DNA of 62,536 nucleotides, counting the filler, from Circinaria calcarea (taxonomy: Eukaryota): the NCBI GenBank assembly GCA_051942165.1. It is 8 parts of 8 records of this genome, joined end to end, with 100 filler letters (N's around TTAATTAATTAA, not from the genome) between each part and the next. Parts side by side here need not be neighbours in the genome. Positions count along the whole stretch, not along the records: positions 15,694 to 23,430 come from JAVECS010001259.1; 7 more parts are not named here. One strand, 5' to 3'. The notes below the pieces were generated by a model, which worked only from the letters and a program-made list of their open reading frames with translations, did no database searches and was not told where the DNA came from. This document shows positions 7,750-23,530 of this stretch, piece after piece. How positions within the stretch are numbered: position 1 is the stretch's first letter; each line of letters opens with the position of its first letter. The position numbers were made by a program, and so were the translations under genes.

Positions 7750-7849
7750 NNNNNNNNNNNNNNNNNNNNNNNNNNNNNNNNNNNNNNNNNNNNTTAATTA
7801 ATTAANNNNNNNNNNNNNNNNNNNNNNNNNNNNNNNNNNNNNNNNNNNN
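7750..7849. other. Artificial contig spacer
   Basis: N44-TTAATTAATTAA-N44, with stops in all six frames. Confidence 0.98.
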
Positions 7850-14955: not shown

Positions 14956-15587
14956 TTAAGCGGCAGCAGTAGCAGGGGGGTCGTTAGCTTGTACGACACC
15001 GTTCTCCGTGAGTGGCTCGGTGCCAGCAGCCTCACCATCGATATCTTCTTTGCCTGGGCTATCGATGGCAATCTTGACAGCGATTTCACGACCCTCAATC
15101 TCTTTTCCGTTCATTTCTTCCACAGCCTTATTTTGCATCTCCTCCGATTCAAGTGTGACGAATCCAAACCCACGACCTTTACGCGGCTCATTGCGGGCTC
15201 GAAGCTTCTTGACCATGAAAGGCGGGATGGGTCGAAGCGCAATTTTTGCGGCGGAAGGATTATATGGGGCAAACAATTCCTTAAGCTGTTGCTCCAGTCA
15301 GTACCGGTGAAGGAGAAGCAAGGGTAATGTAAAATTCGTACCTTTTCCTCACTTAGATCATAAGGAAGATTAGCGACCATAACCTTGTTCTTTGATGGAA
15401 TGCCGTCTTCGGGAGGTCCACGCTGCTTGGGTTGACGAGGAGCACGTGGCTTGGCTTCCTTTCCAGCATCCGTGGCTGGGGCGGCGGCTTCGTCAACCTT
15501 CACCTCGTTAGTGGTGTCCGTAAGCGGCAAGACGTGCTCTGGCAAGTTGGTCGGAACATTAGTTGGAGCATCGCCGTTGGTTTGGCG
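14956..15587 (-). CDS. RRM RNA-binding protein (Sbp1/Rnp24-like), 3' part only
   Basis: RNP2 VMVANL and RNP1 RGFGFV; one intron near 15342-15287; the 5' part lies beyond the spacer. Confidence 0.85.
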
Positions 15588-15593
15588 CTATAG

Positions 15594-15693
15594 NNNNNNN
15601 NNNNNNNNNNNNNNNNNNNNNNNNNNNNNNNNNNNNNTTAATTAATTAANNNNNNNNNNNNNNNNNNNNNNNNNNNNNNNNNNNNNNNNNNNN
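15594..15693. other. Artificial contig spacer
   Basis: N44-TTAATTAATTAA-N44. Confidence 0.98.
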
Positions 15694-15980
15694 TCCTCCT
15701 CCAAGGTCGGCACTAAAGTGATATTAAAATTTGCCCCGACATCATCACCCAGCCCAAGGAGGACCTGCACCGCTACCCGATCGTGTTGCATGTTCAGTTG
15801 GATCGGTCCTCCGCTAAGGGGCCACGGGGTTCGATCATCGCTGGGGTTGTCTTGCCCGCCGCAAGGGAAGTTAGCCAGCTTGTCTTCATCAAAACCGCGC
15901 GCCTCTGGGTATTGGAGGAGAAAATGGGCCGACACGGAGGGCAAAAGACCCAGGAGGATCTGAAGAAGGAGAAAGTTCAT
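15694..15980 (-). CDS. BIM1-like / X325 LPMO-like copper-binding secreted protein, 5' part
   Basis: An 18-aa signal peptide ending VSA places His at mature position 1: HFLLQYPEARGFDED...PCGG...RTPWPLSGGPIQL.MQH.. This is the BIM1-like/X325 His-brace pattern. Confidence 0.85.
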
Positions 15981-16158
15981 GATGCACGTGATTTGCAGGA
16001 TATGGAGAGATGGAAAGATTTAGGCGTGGTATGAAGGTAAGCTGTCGTCTTCAAGGAGATTCGGAGAGACGAGAGGAACGACCAGAACGTGGAATGGCGT
16101 AAACACTGCCATCATGGACAGCGTACCCAGTCACGATTGATATGGCCCGGAGATATTG

Positions 16159-16225
16159 GAGCAAATGTGCTCAAGCTAACGGGCCAGAACATGGATGAAT
16201 CAACAGATCTGGGGAAAAGAGCAAA
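16159..16225. promoter_or_regulatory. Putative Mac1-type copper-response elements upstream of the BIM1-like gene
   Basis: GAGCAAA (reverse complement TTTGCTC) at 16159-16165 directly abuts TGTGCTCA at 16166-16173. A second GAGCAAA lies at 16219-16225. Confidence 0.6.
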
Positions 16226-16699
16226 ATGGAGCATCATTGCCGGGGAAAGCACCATCATCCTGCACAGCAAAGTATTCTACGAGTGGCTGGAAACATTTCC
16301 TCGACGAATGCGTTAAAGCTGCATTCGGCGGACCCATGCTGTTGAGTGCTTGAAGCTACTGTACTGTAGAATGCCCTAAATGGTTGACGATCATTCTACT
16401 CTACTCTAGCGAGTACGCTAGGGGTCTTGTTTCCGTAGCTTCCGTACTATGCATTTTGAGGGCTTAGCTTGGATGAGGCCTCATGTAGCAGCTGGATCTT
16501 CGAGATCTTTCAATTAGGTGATAGAGACAAAACTCATGTTGATTCAAGCAACAGGCAAGTTGGTGGGTGTTGCTTTCCAAGAAAGCGATCCGCGCCAACT
16601 GCACATAGGCCGTTCATACAGTGAAGTCGATTTCGCAAGTCGCTAGTGCAATGCCCGATAAAAAAGGACCTCCTCCCTCCATCTGGAACCGACCAGTCC

Positions 16700-17325
16700 C
16701 TAATGCTCCTCCATTGTAGCGAATCGACCCACAGCTAGTTCGCCCAAGAAGGTGCCCCCAAGGATTGATAGAAAATAGCCAACGTTCATTGTCATAACAC
16801 CCAGCATCCTGGAAGCCGTTAGTCTTCGGCACGCACGTTGCCCCTAGATAGATGTAGAGATGCAGCTCACAGGAGATATCCCACCGCGGCCGTTATAGTC
16901 ATGAATGCTGCGCGGGGCAGATCCACGCTGAATCTCCAGGGAGTTACCGGCCGGACGTGCCTCCGAACGACCTTGACATGCTCCTCGACGCCCCGCTCCG
17001 TGATCAAGGTTCCGCTCTTGGCTTCCGTATTCTCGGCGATTCTTTCTGCTTCGCGCGCCCGGCCTTCTACGACGACATACCTCCGATCCAGTTCACGATC
17101 CAACCATCTTCGTTCGAGGAGCAGTTTGATGGCGAAGAGGCTGCGGAAGACGGTAGCGAGGATGATGAGGAAGACGCACGTCCCGGCGTAGGAGCCAGCG
17201 CTCTTGGGGGCCCAAGTCCTGGAGTAGAGCGGAGTGGAGGTGGAGGTGAAGAAGATCATCTCCATCATCGACGCCGTCGTCGTCGAGGTAGCACTAGACG
17301 GAGAATGTACATGCCCGGAAGACAT
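16700..17325 (-). CDS. Ctr-family high-affinity copper transporter
   Basis: His/Met N-terminus (MSSGHVH..MMEMIFF), TPLYS..W, GYLL, intron 16870-16809, MLGVMTMNVGYFLSILGGTFLGE (MxxxM and GxxxG motifs); stop TAG at 16702-16700. Confidence 0.93.
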
Positions 17326-17574
17326 TTTACAGCCAGCGGTTCATGGGAATAGAAAGCAGCAGCCGCAATGTGCCTAAGCCGAAGTCTGGTGCGATTCCTG
17401 AGATAAAGAGGAGAAATGGGGGCAGAAGTACGGGTCAAGTGTAGCCCTTTGCTATAGACATTGGATTCTTCAAGAAGGGACACGGAGGAGATCACAGGCA
17501 GGTGCAATTCACCGCACGTAATCTTACCGTCTACTCCGGACATGAGGCGATTGTCAAGCCCGGTCGACTAGTCG

Positions 17575-17722
17575 GAGCAAAAGCGGAGTTTGAGCCAGTT
17601 GTGGTGAAGGCGCTCTTCTTTCACCAGTCACTCACTGTCTTGTCCCGGAATTCTTTGTGTCGATGAGGTGATCAGGGCAAGGAACGCGGCTAAGCGAGAA
17701 GGATCCCTGCACAACTTGCTCA
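17575..17722. promoter_or_regulatory. Putative copper-response elements in the divergent CTR/FRE promoter
   Basis: GAGCAAA at 17575-17581 and TTGCTCA at 17716-17722. Confidence 0.45.
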
Positions 17723-18178
17723 AACCACCTTAATCGCTACTTCCACTCGGTAGTCAGTCGCAGTTTTGATCGGGTGCAGTGGCGGTGGTCTCGGCCATAC
17801 TGATAGTCGTGTAATTAAATTCTGGTTGGGTTTCCGTATCCCACACACGTGCAACTTGCATTTGGACTAGAGGAAGAAACAGACTTCGACTTCGACTCGT
17901 ACAAGAGTGGGCCAGTGCCTTTCGTACACACCTTTCCTTCTCACGTTCCTTGCCTTACTACTGTCTTTTTCTCTAATCCCAGAAAGACAACCCCCCAAGC
18001 TGAGAGTCGTGTGCTATCTACTACTCCAGGGAACCCAACAGGCATTACCTCGAGTATCATTCGCGCGGCCAATGTGTAGCTCATCCGCTGTTTAGTTCTC
18101 CGTCGCCTCACTGTGTCCATAACTGAACCGCGGTCACGGGGAAACGTTGTCAATAAGATTTCCAGCTGAGGCGCCGCG

Positions 18179-20298
18179 ATGGACATGGGAAGTATGGGGG
18201 TGTCGATGGGGAATGGTGTACCTACGTTGGCTTATATGCAGAAGATGTACTGGGCTGCAGCTGGAGCAGTGGTTGCTTTTGCCACCATTGTCAATGTCCT
18301 AAGTAAGGCTATATTCAGGCAAAGGTAAGCCGCCGTCCGTTGTCTTCGCATAATCTTTTTTTTAAACAGCTTGTCAGAATGATGGCAGTTGCTCGTGGAG
18401 AGCCCGAGCCTGCCAAACCAAGAAGAATTCTGAGTACAGCAATTGCGACTATGACGGCAATCACGCGCGAGATGGTGGACGTGGGGCCAGACACAACTTT
18501 GCTACGAAAATATCGACTACCGTTACCAACTGCAGGGCGGACCGGACTCATGGTGGCAGAAACAGTCACCGTCCTTGTTCTCTGCTTCTACAAGCTTAAT
18601 CCCCAGGATCAGTGGCAATGGGAAGATATCGGGTATCGAATCGGCGTCATTGCTACAGCCCAGCTTCCTTTCCTGTATGCCCTAGCAGGCAAGCATAATA
18701 TTATCGGGGTGCTCACCGGATACAGCTACGAGAAACTGAATTGGCTCCATCGATGGACGGCAAGGATTTTGTTGCTAACAGTCACCATCCATATGGCTTT
18801 TTGGTTTCGGAGTTGGGCAAGATATAACTTCATTAAGGTAAAAATTACCACGGATGCTATCACTCAGAGGGGCTTTGCCGCATGGTGCATTCTGCTTTGG
18901 ATCGTCTTTAGTTCAATGGCCCCAATCCGAAGATGGAATTACGAGTTTTTCGTGATTCAGCACATTGTAACGTTCATCGGGTTTACTGCCGCGGTCTACC
19001 TTCATGTCCCAGCTGAAGTCAAACCATGGGTTTGGATCTCCATTGCACTTTTTATTTTAGATCGTGTATTGCGGGCATGTGCCTTGCTCTACATTAATAT
19101 CTCATGGCTCCATCCAAACCAGAATAGGAAAGGTTTCTGGGGTTTGGGCGCTACGATGGACTCCTTGCCTGGCAGAGCCACTCGAATTACTATACGAAAT
19201 CCACCGATCGACTGGAAGGCCGGGCAGCACGTGTTCCTCTCATGCCATTCCATCGTACCGTTACAATCCCATCCGTTTACGATATATTCCTTGCCCCAGG
19301 ACGGTAAGATGGAGTTTCTTATCAAATCAGAAGCCGGCTGCACGAGGAAAATCTACGAATCTGCCGAGAAGCACCAGACTCTACCAGGGCCAACAGAGAA
19401 ACGGCAAGTAAATTGCACAATTGAGGGACCGTATGGACGAATGCGACCACTTAATCAGTTTGACAGTGTCTTTCTCATTGCCGGGAGCACCGGGAGTACA
19501 TTTATCCTTCCCCTGATGAGAGACCTTGTGCGAAAATGGGATGATTGTACAATCACGGCTACGAAACACATTCGCTTCATATGGGCAGTAAAATCTCACA
19601 GCCAGTCTGCTTGGTTTGCTCCACAGTTCGCCACCGCTGCCGAAACTGTTGCCCGACTCAGGTCGGAGGGCCGGAATATCGAGTTGCACATCAGCATCTA
19701 CGTGACTTGTGACGAGACATTTGACACCGCCGATGACCCTTGCGGAGGAGGATCCATCCGGCCGGGAAATGACTTGAAAACACCAATTACCCACATATGG
19801 GATGAGAATGAAAAGGTGAGTGTGACAGGTAAGCTGTCACAGCTAGACCATAAGCTCGAGGATGAAGTCAGCAAGGCGTGTGGTCCAGACGGTGCATGTT
19901 GCTGCACAGCTACTATTGTGGACGAGAATGGAGGAAATGATGACGCTGCGAAATTTGAGTGCCGATGCGGTGACGATGTAATACAGATTGTCGAGGAAGA
20001 GAAAAGTTCTCCGCAAGATTCATCAAGCATTGATACAGGATACTCTATCTCTTTGCATAAAGACCCAATGGCCTTACATCCTTCAATCACGGTGTTATCC
20101 GGACGGCCACACCCACGAAGCTTACTTCGAAAGACATTGGAGCAAGCGTTAGGGGAGAGTGCGGTCGTTGCATGTGGGCCACTGGGGTTACTTGACGATG
20201 TTCGATCAAGTGTGGTGACATTAAGCGATGAAAGAGCCATCCACAAGGGTACTGGAGCACAAGGCATCTACCTCCACACAGAATCTTACGGGTATTGA
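18179..20298 (+). CDS. Ferric/cupric reductase transmembrane component (FRE family)
   Basis: ATG 18179 (MDMGSMGVSMG), intron 18325-18377; heme histidines in LHRW/TIHM and IQHI/YLHV; FAD motif HPFTI; EGPYG; NADPH motif LIAGSTG; ACGP; terminal HTESYGY. Confidence 0.94.
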
Positions 20299-22608
20299 CT
20301 TCTAATACTCAAAGATGCTATGGCCTCAACAAGCCCCTATTATGAATAACATATTCCTTGGAAGACCAGGTCTGATAGGTTTGCGTTTTAAGGTACACCA
20401 TCCAGGGTAGCTGGTAAAATACTTGTCGAGATCACAAAATATAGCTAAGCTCATGGGGCCTGGTATCCCATGGTAGAACCACGCCTGCTTAAGGCTTGCC
20501 AGATCCCTAGCCTCAGGTTCCGCAGAGCAACGACTTTGGCCGCGAGAATTACGACATATAGGACTTCCGAGTAAATCGAAGGTCCCAAAAGGTCATTTAT
20601 CGTCAGGTGTTCAGTGGCGTCCTTTGGTGGCATTGTTGGAGGCACGAGAAGTGTCATCCTTGTCGGCCAACCGCTTGACCACAGAGAACCAGCTATGGAG
20701 ACATAAACTAATGCGTGTGACCATGAAGTGCTCTCTACGCCTGGGACAATGAACGTTTGCACGGTAGCAACATGAACGCGAAGTGCTTCTAGAGGCTTAC
20801 CTGATGATAATATGAACTTGCACATGTCATACTTGACATAAGGCCAGGATAAAGCGCAATATTATAATCATATTGCAATTGCGACGATTTCATGGAGGAT
20901 CAAAGAAGGGCGAAGATACAGTATGGCATGGTCTGCCCTTAAGAGGATACCAAGATCGCCAAGTCCCAATGGCTGTTGGTATATAGGTAGTGGCTGATAA
21001 GGCAGTCTAACGGACTACTATGGTCGTGCTGCCAAGTCCTTTTCATATCAAAAACTACCACCTACGTGCAAGCTTGCAATCCTGTGCATGGCAACTTACT
21101 TTATCTAGGCATCCAACTGGCTAATAGTAGCTCTAAGCCCTCAGTTATTCTCCCTTGGTCGTCGCCACTCGTAGTCGGTCCTGTGTCCTTTCCACCAGAC
21201 ACTACAGCCAAAAGGCCGAACAAGCGTACTTGACCACCAGAATCAGGGCCTTCTTCGTTTATGTAGCTCCATTCGGACTGTATCTGGATGTGAGAATATA
21301 GCGGTGATACTCGGATTTTGGCCATTCGGAGTGAACTATGCCTACGAGGTTTAGCCATCTATCACGTGCTCATGTTGTCTGAGCATCGACTATCGAATGA
21401 TTGAAGGGTGCCTTGTCATGAAGGCGCAGGCCTTGGACCATCTGAGCTGATCTTATCGCCGCTCGGACATCCTATCCCGACTCCTTGTCGGCAGGAATGA
21501 AGGTTGGGAGCAAGTGCTCAATCCACAGCACATCGTCTATGAAATTGCTGAATTGGTTTCATTGGGTGAAAAGTCTTCAGGAGTGGCTTCGAGATCGGCA
21601 TTGTTCATTGAGGCGCCGAGAGCGGGAGTTGAACTCACGACGGATTGGTTCCTGGAATTGAAGTTGGAGAGGTCGAGCTGAAGATAGGTGCTGCAGGGGA
21701 ATAGGACATGCTTCTCAATATCTGCGTCGGCAGCCTCACAGGTAGATGAGGTTACGTGGGGCGAGATGAATATGTACAGAGTATGTATGCACTGGCTAGT
21801 TTAGAATAAGGATTTTCCTCCATCAAACCAGTCTTACCTGAAAGACCTAGCCAACGGCTGGCCCATGTTCCTCGAGGAAGTAAACGTTATTCACCGAGGT
21901 CCCTTTGAGACGATTGAACTCGTGATTTTTCATTTCTGGTCGAATACACAGAATAAACCGGGGTAAAACAACCGCCCTCGGGAGGATTCGACAAAACACT
22001 GCATTTCCCAAAGTTTCCTTCACCGCATGTCGCAGTCAAGGGAGGCACGGAGGACATAGTAAGCGCAATCGATGCCTGAACTAGCTTAGCTGACGACCAT
22101 GCTAGTTCATCTCCTGCAAAGCTCGGATCCCCTGCACTCATTGTGGGGGACGATCGGGCGCCGGGCCAGTGAGATAACGAGATCTGACGCTAGCGGAACC
22201 AAGATCGCAATGCACCAATCGAAGCTGTCGGAGTGCCGCAGTCTCGTCCGGTTTAGGCTATGGAAGCTTGGGTGCAAACCTTGCAGGCGTCATTCCAGGC
22301 TTGTTCGAGGACTGTGATTGAGCGAGGGCCGGATGATTGCACCTTACAAGCTTGATCTTGTCTCGGGCAGGTCTTGTCCTTACGCCCCGGGGAGTTGGTA
22401 ATCCTGACCATGACTTCTTTGCCGTGTATCTCTGGGGGATCCGTTGATCTCTCTCAACCCCATGTTTCCTTGCGCACATTTTCCTTTATAAGCTTCGGGA
22501 CTAGGTACCTGGTGTATCCGCCTCTCGGAAATACATGCATCGAGTCGATCCTTCTGGCTCCCTTTACCCGTATATTCCCATTGAGTCCTCGTGCCTCAGT
22601 CCTAGATC

Positions 22609-23430
22609 ATGTCAAGTCCGCGCGTACTGATCTACTTACTCCGACGTGACCTCCGCATAAAGGACAACCCGGTATTGCAGGAAATAGCTAAGGCGTACCA
22701 GCGACCGCATCAACCATACACCCACCTACTTCCCGTCTACGTCTTTCCAGCTCAGCAGCTGGAGGTATCAGGATTTGTGTCCGCTGACTCGGAGCGCTCC
22801 CCTTTCCCAGAGGCAAGATCGCCATCAGGGGGATTCTGGAGATGTGGGCACCACCGCGCAAAGTTTGTAGCGGAGAGTGTGTGGGATTTGAAAAAGTCCC
22901 TGGAAGGCGTGGGAAATGGATTACAGATCCGCGTAGGAATGGTCGGGCAAGTAGTGAAAGAAATTCTGGATGCCTACAAGGAGGGCGACACTCCAGGGGA
23001 GATCGTGAGTGTATGGATGACGAGCGAGGAGGGCGTCGAAGAAGAGAGGGAGGAGCGAGACGTTCGGAGGGCCGTTGAAGGTGCTGGGAAAGACTTCCAG
23101 ATCTGGGTAGATGAAAAGTATTATATTGACGAGTACGGACATTCTTTATCTAATATTGAGACGTTGAAACGCTAAACCTCTTGCAGTCGTGACCTCCCTT
23201 TTCGCAATCCATGCAACCTTCCCGACGTTTTCACGGCCTATAGAAAACAAGTCGAACCTCTACGAGATGCTCCTAGGCGGACCCTTCCGGTACCTGGAAA
23301 TTTACCCCCGTTACCAGCGGTCATACCTCCTCAATCAGCGCCTTTTGCCATTCCAGATAACCTCGACGACATCATTGGCTGTCTCGTTAAACCGCTTGAG
23401 CCTAGTCTTGGTCTTGCTCATCCCCCCAAC
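22609..23430 (+). CDS. Cryptochrome DASH (photolyase family), 5' part
   Basis: LIYLLRRDLRIKDNP, THLLPVYVFP, GFWRCGHHRAKFVAESVWDLK; intron near 23133-23187; DLPF..LPDVFTAYRK. Confidence 0.88.
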
Positions 23431-23530
23431 NNNNNNNNNNNNNNNNNNNNNNNNNNNNNNNNNNNNNNNNNNNNTTAATTAATTAANNNNNNNNNNNNNN
23501 NNNNNNNNNNNNNNNNNNNNNNNNNNNNNN
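23431..23530. other. Artificial contig spacer
   Basis: N44-TTAATTAATTAA-N44. Confidence 0.98.

Follow-up and report, generated by a model that had tools for sequence, protein, structure and literature searches.

A BIM1/X325-like His-brace protein gene, a Ctr transporter gene, and an FRE metalloreductase gene lie side by side at 15694..20298, within one whole 7,737-bp contig (15694..23430) from a lichen fungus MAG. The window, that is, the whole stretch of DNA analyzed, spans 62.5 kb and consists of eight short contigs joined by N44-TTAATTAATTAA-N44 spacers; tblastn found no second copy of the BIM1-like, Ctr, or FRE gene within it. In our judgment this locus likely serves a lichen-forming ascomycete in copper uptake when copper is limiting, and in it the conserved divergent Ctr-FRE pair is accompanied by a BIM1-like gene. 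The parts and the Ctr-FRE pair are well known, and the locus is otherwise ordinary copper-homeostasis biology; the sole element that appears to be undescribed is the physical presence of the BIM1-like gene in the cluster.

Gene content and arrangement of the locus

The BIM1-like gene is positioned tail-to-head beside Ctr, with both on the minus strand, while FRE is on the plus strand and divergent from Ctr. Pfam profile matches above the curated cut-offs identified all three families (PF20238 for BIM1-like; PF04145 for Ctr; PF01794, PF08022, and PF08030 for FRE). The original prediction had placed three genes of these families at this position, in these orientations, and with about 850 bp between Ctr and FRE, and it proved correct on each count, the Ctr and FRE start codons being 853 bp apart.

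The 5′ part of the BIM1-like gene (15694..15980, minus strand) starts with an ATG at 15980 and its reading frame leaves the contig at 15694, with 95 amino acids present. These residues matched positions 1-76 of the 140-position PF20238 profile (E = 4.6e-17; 63.2 bits versus a cut-off of 27), a domain that was present in 12 of 12 BIM1-like homologues found. The orthologues P0012 and P0010 mapped to 15696..15941 only when searched against the window with tblastn. A putative signal peptide (15980..15927, minus strand) has the hydrophobic core FLLLQILLGLL and ends at a VSA-H junction. Signal-peptide cleavage follows the -3/-1 rule, and the N-terminus (...LLPSVSA-HF...), whose -3 and -1 residues are Val and Ala, fits it; cleavage after VSA would expose His19 (codon 15926..15924, minus strand).

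The claim of a His brace was upheld at the level of alignment. His19 and His66 (codon 15785..15783, minus strand) aligned to His1 and His49 of the LaX325 structure from Laetisaria arvalis (PDB 6ibh, chain 6ibh_A; E = 0.0032 over BIM1-like residues 19-82), and both were invariant in 10 of 10 aligned BIM1-like homologues. LaX325 (PDB 6ibh/6ibi/6ibj) resembles the protein in the mature HF.LQ.P.ARG... start and the second His; however, it is a basidiomycete protein that is distant in sequence, and the Asp ligand region falls beyond the contig end. Because the assembly ends at 15694, the BIM1-like protein lacks its C-terminal half in this copy, and it is there that both the Asp ligand region and a GPI signal would lie. 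The fourth copper ligand of X325 proteins is described as an Asp carboxylate (PMC10952591), and an (N/S)GDP stretch, with hardly any variation at its G, D, or P, occurred in all homologues reaching that region. At the C-terminus of orthologues P0010, P0012, and P0014, a Ser/Ala-rich stretch leads into a hydrophobic tail, and one orthologue carries the source name 'GPI anchored protein'; by appearance, these proteins look GPI-anchored.

The Ctr gene encodes 187 amino acids on the minus strand and has one intron. Exon 1 (17325..16871) matched PF04145 over profile positions 1-125 of 151 (E = 9e-23, 81.9 bits) and exon 2 (16808..16700, stop codon included) over positions 129-150 (26.1 bits), with a cut-off of 25.3 bits. 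The 62-nt intron between them (16870..16809, GTGAGC...CAG) was read from the sequence, and the spliced junction, ...GYLL-MLGV..., agrees with the full-length orthologue P0026, residues 154-188 of which mapped to exon 2 (tblastn). The full Ctr signature consists of MxxxM in the second transmembrane segment with GxxxG 12 residues later, and after splicing exon 2 reads MLGVM-TMNVGYFLSILG-GTFLG (MxxxM-x12-GxxxG) in this segment. The importance of MxxxM for Ctr transporters has been stated (PMC7705104). The N-terminal Met motif MMEM (...ASMMEMIFF...), before the first hydrophobic segment, is short and without a long Mets domain. There were 840 Ctr homologues, and PF04145 was found in 120 of 120 among the matches listed. 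The deposited gene model on the 7,737-bp contig is wrong and hides the Ctr gene; automated copper-transporter surveys of such MAGs will therefore give counts that are too low.

The FRE gene, on the plus strand, encodes 688 amino acids and also has one intron. Exon 1 (18179..18324) begins with MDMGSMGVSMGNG... and encodes the first hydrophobic helix; a 53-nt intron (18325..18377, GTAAGC...CAG), read from the sequence, separates it from exon 2 (18378..20298), with the transmembrane, FAD, and NAD(P)H domains. These correspond to PF01794 (Ferric_reduct; 2.5e-27, 95.8 bits), PF08022 (FAD_binding_8; 3e-19, 69.6 bits), and PF08030 (NAD_binding_6; 3e-15, 57 bits). Orthologues share the N-terminal MDMGSMGVSMGNG motif, residues 6-56 of P0220 mapped to 18173..18325 (tblastn), and the junction ...FRQ-R-MMAV... 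is the same as in the deposited model P0137, a 100% identical FRE match. In FRE enzymes two His pairs denote two haems, HPFT the FAD site, and GPYG the NADPH site. The translation contains two H-x13-H pairs (HRWTARILLLTVTIH and HIVTFIGFTAAVYLH), SHPFTI, EGPYG, and CGP; the His pairs, HPFT, and GPYG did not vary among the aligned orthologues (9/9). The NAD(P)H domain also contains a conserved insert rich in Cys (CGPDGACCC...CRC; 19879..19968, plus strand), the six Cys of which were likewise invariant across the alignment (9/9 orthologues), and its CCC core was present in 118 of 120 FRE matches listed. This CCC...CxC insert, predicted to be cytosolic, is nearly universal in the FRE of the Ctr-FRE pair.

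CuRE-like motifs in the two promoters

Three Mac1-type CuRE-like motifs, all strict matches, were located at 16159..16225, that is, 179-245 bp upstream of the BIM1-like ATG. These are GAGCAAA (16159-16165), TGTGCTCA (16166-16173), which is the exact published A. fumigatus MacA motif (PMC6514546), and GAGCAAAA (16219-16225, with one further A). The 853-bp divergent promoter common to Ctr and FRE (17326..18178, between the start codons) has only one strict match, GAGCAAAA (17575-17581), and one 7-of-8 match, CTTGCTCA (17715-17722). The motifs were taken from published work (PMC11509074, PMC6514546, PMC11563359) and may not be the Mac1 motif of Lecanoromycetes; authors working on Pseudogymnoascus destructans reported no Mac1 consensus in the CTR promoters of that fungus (PMC11509074).

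Over the whole window TKTGCTC was not enriched (21 matches found versus 17.5 expected). Four of the 21 matches fell inside the two promoters (1,572 bp), where 0.44-0.53 were expected (Poisson P ~0.001-0.002, calculated post hoc). Three of them lie within 70 bp in the BIM1-like promoter, an outcome seen in 0.47% of random placements (P ~0.005, likewise post hoc), and they form the densest CuRE-like cluster of the entire window.

Recurrence of the linkage and comparison with known systems

Where locus tags or accessions could be used for both the BIM1-like orthologue and a partner, the two were linked in each of the four genomes (4/4); the comparison was based on locus tags, accessions, and record sizes. 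The BIM1-like gene (Q9222_001081, KAL8953031) and Ctr gene (Q9222_001082, KAL8953032) of Ikaeria have consecutive locus tags. Exactly one gene separates BIM1-like from FRE in Coniosporium apollinis (KAJ9666687 and KAJ9666689), C. apollinis CBS 100218 (W97_05509 and W97_05511), and C. tulheliwenetii (KAJ9635430 and KAJ9635432), and we infer that the gene between them is Ctr in all three. Contigs of identical length also turned up, with BIM1-like P0005 and Ctr P0017 on 8,289 bp and BIM1-like P0006 and FRE P0139 on 14,579 bp, both from the closest relatives, P0260 and P0264 on 10,662 bp, and P0007, P0267, and P0165 all on 2,300,223 bp. Ctr and FRE had consecutive tags in all eight locus-tagged lichen MAG taxa among the matches listed for both.

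BIM1-like adjacency was thereby found in two classes, Lecanoromycetes and Dothideomycetes. The three BLP genes of P. destructans (VC83_02818, VC83_03095, and VC83_07867) are not neighbors of its two CTR genes (VC83_00191 and VC83_04814). For microsynteny, suggested earlier as a check on the cluster, tags and accessions placed the BIM1-like gene beside Ctr in Ikaeria and one gene away from FRE in the three Coniosporium genomes, and the linkage was absent in P. destructans. Because the neighborhood recurs in other genomes, the arrangement is more than chance. The Lecanoromycetes and rock-inhabiting Dothideomycetes with this linkage are fungi of bare mineral surfaces.

The original prediction had described Ctr-FRE pairs as known, and indeed, of 127 fungal species, 110 are reported to keep the position and orientation of the divergent pair (PMC7705104). 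The ctrA-freC pair of Aspergillus nidulans is like our locus in having a divergent Ctr and FRE-type metalloreductase with a common promoter and a Mac1 site; the portion of the account drawn on here leaves a BIM1-like third gene unmentioned, and the likeness rests on families and arrangement (PMC7705104). Fusarium oxysporum Mac1 binds ctr/fre divergent promoters, including that of a Mac1-bound three-gene cluster, ctr3/fre9/FOXG_07771, in which the third gene is, as here, beyond Ctr on the side away from FRE (PMC11563359). FOXG_07771, however, is listed in the part of that source used here as a 'SAM domain-containing protein', not as BIM1-like, and it is by this listed name that we set it apart (PMC11563359). 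A Ctr, a metalloreductase, and a BIM1 homologue are already in print as a functional triad (PMC13208438), and in an ascomycete the withholding of copper leads to strong induction of BLP2 and BLP3 (PMC12113139, PMC13208438). The earlier remark that a three-part arrangement with an X325 protein seemed undescribed agrees with our literature search, which found no paper on the BIM1-like/Ctr/FRE triad as a physical cluster.

The founding Bim1 paper is reportedly that of Garcia-Santamarina (2020), and the Cryptococcus neoformans Bim1 and Ctr1 genes are, from their locus numbers, presumably not neighbors. C. neoformans Bim1/Cbi1, which works with Ctr1 (PMC9258870), is similar to the protein described here in PF20238 ('Copper acquisition factor BIM1-like'), the N-terminal His brace, and a presumed surface role alongside a Ctr importer when copper is limiting. 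It differs in that Bim1 and Ctr1 belong to the Cuf1 regulon and are not regulated by a Mac1-type factor, and in that the BIM1-like protein here is known from its first 95 residues alone. Bacterial CopC and YcnI are likewise His-brace copper binders encoded beside a copper transport protein (PMC10952591), but with unrelated transporter families, operon organization, and no reductase, such that the comparison is an analogy only.

A putative copper uptake module and its alternatives

In the mechanism that we propose, copper scarcity would lead a Mac1-type copper-fist activator to bind the CuRE-like sites of the BIM1-like and Ctr/FRE promoters. The secreted BIM1-like protein would bind Cu(II) at the cell surface via its His brace (His19 and His66). 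The FRE flavocytochrome would then draw electrons from NAD(P)H in the cytosol and carry them through the membrane to reduce Cu(II) to Cu(I), which the Ctr trimer would take in, with copper presumably handed from protein to protein. As to the capture-reduce-import module advanced originally, families, brace alignment, linkage, and CuRE-like motifs all support a clustered set, while the P. destructans genes indicate that the linkage is not universal. A more far-reaching proposal, which we offer tentatively and regard as possible but doubtful, is that the triad is old, has been kept together by selection, and forms a co-regulated copper-scavenging module of Lecanoromycetes and rock-inhabiting Dothideomycetes, in which the FRE CCC...CxC insert could bind Cu(I) and so tune the reductase to copper status.

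The Ctr-FRE pair alone might be the functional unit, with the BIM1-like gene a synteny bystander that has a cell-wall or surface redox job instead of supplying copper to this Ctr. Cbi1/Bim1 does also influence the C. neoformans cell wall (PMC9258870), and a review calls the biochemical role of X325 unknown (PMC10952591); the unlinked BLP and CTR genes of P. destructans and the differently named third gene beside F. oxysporum ctr3 (PMC11563359) point the same way. We nevertheless consider a bystander unlikely given the repeated adjacency in Lecanoromycetes and Dothideomycetes, the dense CuRE-like cluster in the BIM1-like promoter, and the report that BLPs are among the proteins most induced by copper limitation in another ascomycete (PMC13208438). 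It also seems quite improbable that FRE is chiefly an iron reductase, for Fe(II) supply or siderophore iron, and that the locus reflects iron-copper cross-talk. FRE adjoins Ctr in eight of eight taxa checked, such pairs share a Mac1-bound promoter in A. nidulans (PMC7705104) and F. oxysporum (PMC11563359), and neither the BIM1-like nor the Ctr/FRE promoter holds an SreA-type ATCWGATAA site, even with one mismatch allowed. In favor of an iron role, FRE enzymes commonly reduce both metals, as do S. cerevisiae Fre1 and Fre2 (cited in PMC7705104), and a Coniosporium FRE orthologue bears the source name 'ferric-chelate reductase Frp1', but this name is an automatic annotation rather than an assay. 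It is because of the conserved neighborhood with Ctr that we favor a cupric reductase role for FRE.

A short, MAG-derived contig of 7,737 bp with an incorrect deposited gene model could also raise the suspicion of an assembly or binning artefact, such as a chimeric contig. We give this very little credence, as the order or linkage is repeated in independent assemblies, including the Coniosporium isolate genomes, and the closest relatives hold BIM1-like with Ctr (8,289 bp) and BIM1-like with FRE (14,579 bp) on single contigs.

If the linkage of the BIM1-like gene to the Ctr-FRE pair is functional, it would provide independent genomic support for a role of BIM1/X325 proteins in copper import outside Cryptococcus, and would indicate the particular Ctr and reductase with which these proteins work. 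In that case, lichen and rock fungi, to which the recovery of metals from mineral surfaces is important, would lend themselves to testing. Should the module reading be true, these genomes would hold the first comparative-genomic evidence of Ascomycota X325 proteins as dedicated partners of one Ctr/FRE pair.

Gene content of the putative copper locus

The eight pieces that make up the 62,536-base window are each ~7.7 kb long and are joined by N44-TTAATTAATTAA-N44 spacers (7750..7849, 15594..15693, 23431..23530, and four more), across which features are not to be read. The third piece (15694..23430; 7,737 bp) is an entire contig of a metagenome-assembled genome from Circinaria calcarea, a lichen-forming fungus of the Lecanoromycetes (Pertusariales), and sequence before 15694 comes from a different contig. 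The end of that preceding contig encodes an RNA-recognition-motif-like protein on the minus strand (14956..15587; ...GRGFGFVTLESEEMQNKAVEEMNGKEIEGREIAVKIA...) that is unrelated to the three-gene locus.

The original prediction placed a BIM1-like gene, a Ctr transporter gene, and an FRE metalloreductase gene side by side on this piece, and Pfam confirmed all three identities (PF20238; PF04145; PF01794, PF08022, and PF08030), with half of the BIM1-like gene present. The latter begins at an ATG at 15980 (minus strand) and runs off the contig end at 15694, leaving 95 residues. PF20238 ('Copper acquisition factor BIM1-like') matched this fragment with E=4.6e-17 and 63.2 bits against a cut-off of 27, although the match covers profile positions 1-76 of 140 only. 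The N-terminus of the protein reads MNFLLLQILLGLLPSVSA|HFLLQYPEARGFDEDKLANFPCGG. A Protein Data Bank search returned a sole match, the X325 protein of Laetisaria arvalis (LaX325; 6ibh), in whose crystallised mature form His1 and His49 align with His19 and His66, respectively, of the BIM1-like protein; His19 and His66 were both invariant across an alignment of 10 BIM1-like homologues. In full-length orthologues (217-233 aa), the part beyond the window's fragment comprises a conserved (N/S)GDP stretch, then a linker rich in Ser and Ala, and finally a tail of hydrophobic residues; one orthologue carries the source name 'GPI anchored protein', and the corresponding region falls beyond the contig end here. 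When the BIM1-like alignment was compared with bacterial and archaeal genome contigs, 82 pattern matches came down to one locus (L001, 10001..10141) on a contig of a high-GC Acidobacteriota MAG. This match (52 residues, 42% identity) was weak and antisense to an unrelated ORF, and was judged spurious.

The Ctr gene shares the minus-strand orientation of the BIM1-like gene, as had been proposed, with 719 bp separating its stop codon from the BIM1-like ATG. Its two exons (17325..16871 and 16808..16700), both of which contribute to the PF04145 match, flank a 62-nt intron (GTGAGC...CAG, between 16871 and 16808), and splicing yields a protein of 187 aa with an MxxxM-x12-GxxxG signature. The splice junction, ...GYLL|MLGVMTMNVGYF..., agrees with a full-length orthologue returned by the searches (P0026).

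FRE is divergent from Ctr, and the ~850 bp predicted to lie between them measured 853 bp from start codon to start codon. It consists of exon 1 (18179..18324, plus strand), a 53-nt intron, and exon 2 (18378..20298, plus strand), encoding a 688-aa protein with matches to all three reductase domains, two H-x13-H pairs, and HPFT and GPYG motifs, these residues being invariant in 9/9 orthologues. The NAD(P)H domain carries a conserved Cys-rich insert, CGPDGACCC...CRC (19879-19968, plus strand), whose six Cys residues were likewise invariant in all nine aligned orthologues and whose CCC core was found in 118 of the 120 listed matches (best 120 of 822). One might speculate that this insert has a cytosolic metal-binding or regulatory role.

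The deposited FRE model, Q9187_005410, is a 100% identical match to the window's FRE but is 861 aa long, with an erroneous 173-residue N-terminus pieced together from sequence antisense to Ctr exon 1 (16978-17268, plus strand) and from intergenic DNA (17457-17681, plus strand). This N-terminal part was absent from 8/8 orthologues. The model thereby masks Ctr in the public annotation, and the error likewise accounts for the lack of an annotated 100% match for either Ctr or the BIM1-like fragment. Downstream of FRE, a Pfam scan of eight ORFs in 20299-23430 left seven without a match, and none matched within 20299..22600; a photolyase/cryptochrome-family gene (PF00875, E=2.7e-12) extends on the plus strand from ~22606, ~2.3 kb past FRE, to the contig end at 23430.

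Linkage in other genomes

Linkage elsewhere was judged from the protein searches, by means of locus tags, the order of accessions, and contigs of identical size. Among the best 120 of 840 Ctr matches and the best 120 of 822 FRE matches, Ctr and FRE had consecutive locus tags in 8/8 taxa tagged in both lists (Fulgogasparrea, Wetmoreana, cf. Caloplaca sp. 1, Dirinaria, Gallowayella, Psora testacea, Polycauliona sp. 1, and Blastenia). By eye, 17 of the 40 first-listed Ctr matches (P0017-P0056) were on a contig of the same size as that of a listed FRE match.

The BIM1-like search returned 12 proteins. Tags and accessions place BIM1-like Q9222_001081 (KAL8953031) beside Ctr Q9222_001082 (KAL8953032) in Ikaeria aurantiellina, and exactly one gene lies between BIM1-like and FRE in each of three Coniosporium genomes: C. 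apollinis (KAJ9666687 [H2201_003091] and KAJ9666689), C. apollinis CBS 100218 (W97_05509 and W97_05511), and C. tulheliwenetii (KAJ9635430 and KAJ9635432). We infer that the intervening gene is Ctr. Identical contig sizes also joined BIM1-like P0005 (86% identical to the window's) with Ctr P0017 (89%) at 8,289 bp, BIM1-like P0006 with FRE P0139 at 14,579 bp, P0260 with P0264 at 10,662 bp, and P0007 with P0267 and P0165 at 2,300,223 bp. Ikaeria and Circinaria belong to separate subclasses of the Lecanoromycetes and Coniosporium is a dothideomycete, and the BIM1-like linkage therefore spans two classes. The predicted adjacency recurs, but not everywhere. Pseudogymnoascus destructans is an exception: according to the accessible portion of PMC12113139, its three BIM1-like genes (VC83_02818, _03095, and _07867) do not adjoin its two CTR genes (VC83_00191 and _04814).

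Mac1-type motifs in the two promoters

Published sites for copper regulators include the yeast Mac1 consensus TTTGC(T/G)C(A/G), as cited in the available text of PMC11509074, the Aspergillus fumigatus MacA motif TGTGCTCA (PMC6514546), and the Fusarium oxysporum Mac1 consensus DHNTGCTCA, from excerpts of PMC11563359. On both strands of the window TKTGCTC had 21 matches versus 17.5 expected from shuffles, and so was not enriched window-wide. The two promoters, that is, the region upstream of the BIM1-like ATG and the Ctr/FRE intergenic region (1,572 bp together), hold four of the 21 matches, with 0.44-0.53 expected (Poisson P ~0.001-0.002). Three of these four precede the BIM1-like start codon by 179-245 bp, and three matches fell within 70 bp in 0.47% of random placements. 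The BIM1-like promoter contains GAGCAAA (16159) directly adjoining an exact TGTGCTCA (16166), as well as GAGCAAAA (16219), while the Ctr/FRE promoter contains GAGCAAAA at 17575 and CTTGCTCA at 17715. Neither promoter contained an SreA-type iron-regulator site (ATCWGATAA, up to one mismatch). These post hoc motif counts, based on consensuses from other fungi that may differ from those of lichen fungi, are suggestive of Mac1-type control of the locus.

Known copper loci and a putative uptake module

CTR-FRE pairs were already known, as the original prediction had noted. According to the sections of PMC7705104 available, Aspergillus nidulans ctrA-freC is a divergent pair with a shared Mac1 promoter, conserved in position and orientation in 110/127 species, and the divergent Ctr-FRE arrangement is common to it and the window. 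In F. oxysporum, the available part of PMC11563359 describes Mac1-bound ctr3-fre9 and ctr1b-fre12 pairs and a cluster, ctr3/fre9/FOXG_07771, that like the window combines Ctr, FRE, and a third gene; FOXG_07771 is listed there as a 'SAM domain-containing protein', a name that sets it apart from BIM1-like proteins. Ctr, a metalloreductase, and a BIM1/Cbi1 homologue are stated to be a functional triad in the accessible text of PMC13208438. Literature including PMC12113139, PMC13208438, PMC11509074, PMC10952591, PMC7705104, and PMC11563359 yielded, in the portions available, no account of BIM1-like, Ctr, and FRE genes forming a physical cluster, on which Garcia-Santamarina 2020 or Labourel 2020 might still remark. 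The arrangement with a BIM1-like third gene is mildly novel, and the function ordinary.

The proposed capture-reduce-import module is partly supported: it agrees with the gene identities, motifs, arrangement, and recurrence, and less well with a linkage that is not universal. Among other readings, an artefact of assembly joining the three genes on one contig is unlikely, because independent assemblies show the same linkage. The BIM1-like gene may instead be a bystander having a cell-wall role, or FRE may be chiefly an iron reductase, in keeping with the name 'Frp1' given to an orthologue by one source.

We nevertheless regard capture-reduce-import copper uptake under Mac1-type control as the probable role of the locus. 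On the model of systems already characterised, under low copper a Mac1-type factor would be active at the CuRE-like promoter sites; the BIM1-like protein, presumably at the cell surface, would take Cu(II) by its His brace and hand copper on, FRE would reduce Cu(II) to Cu(I), and Ctr would bring Cu(I) into the cell.
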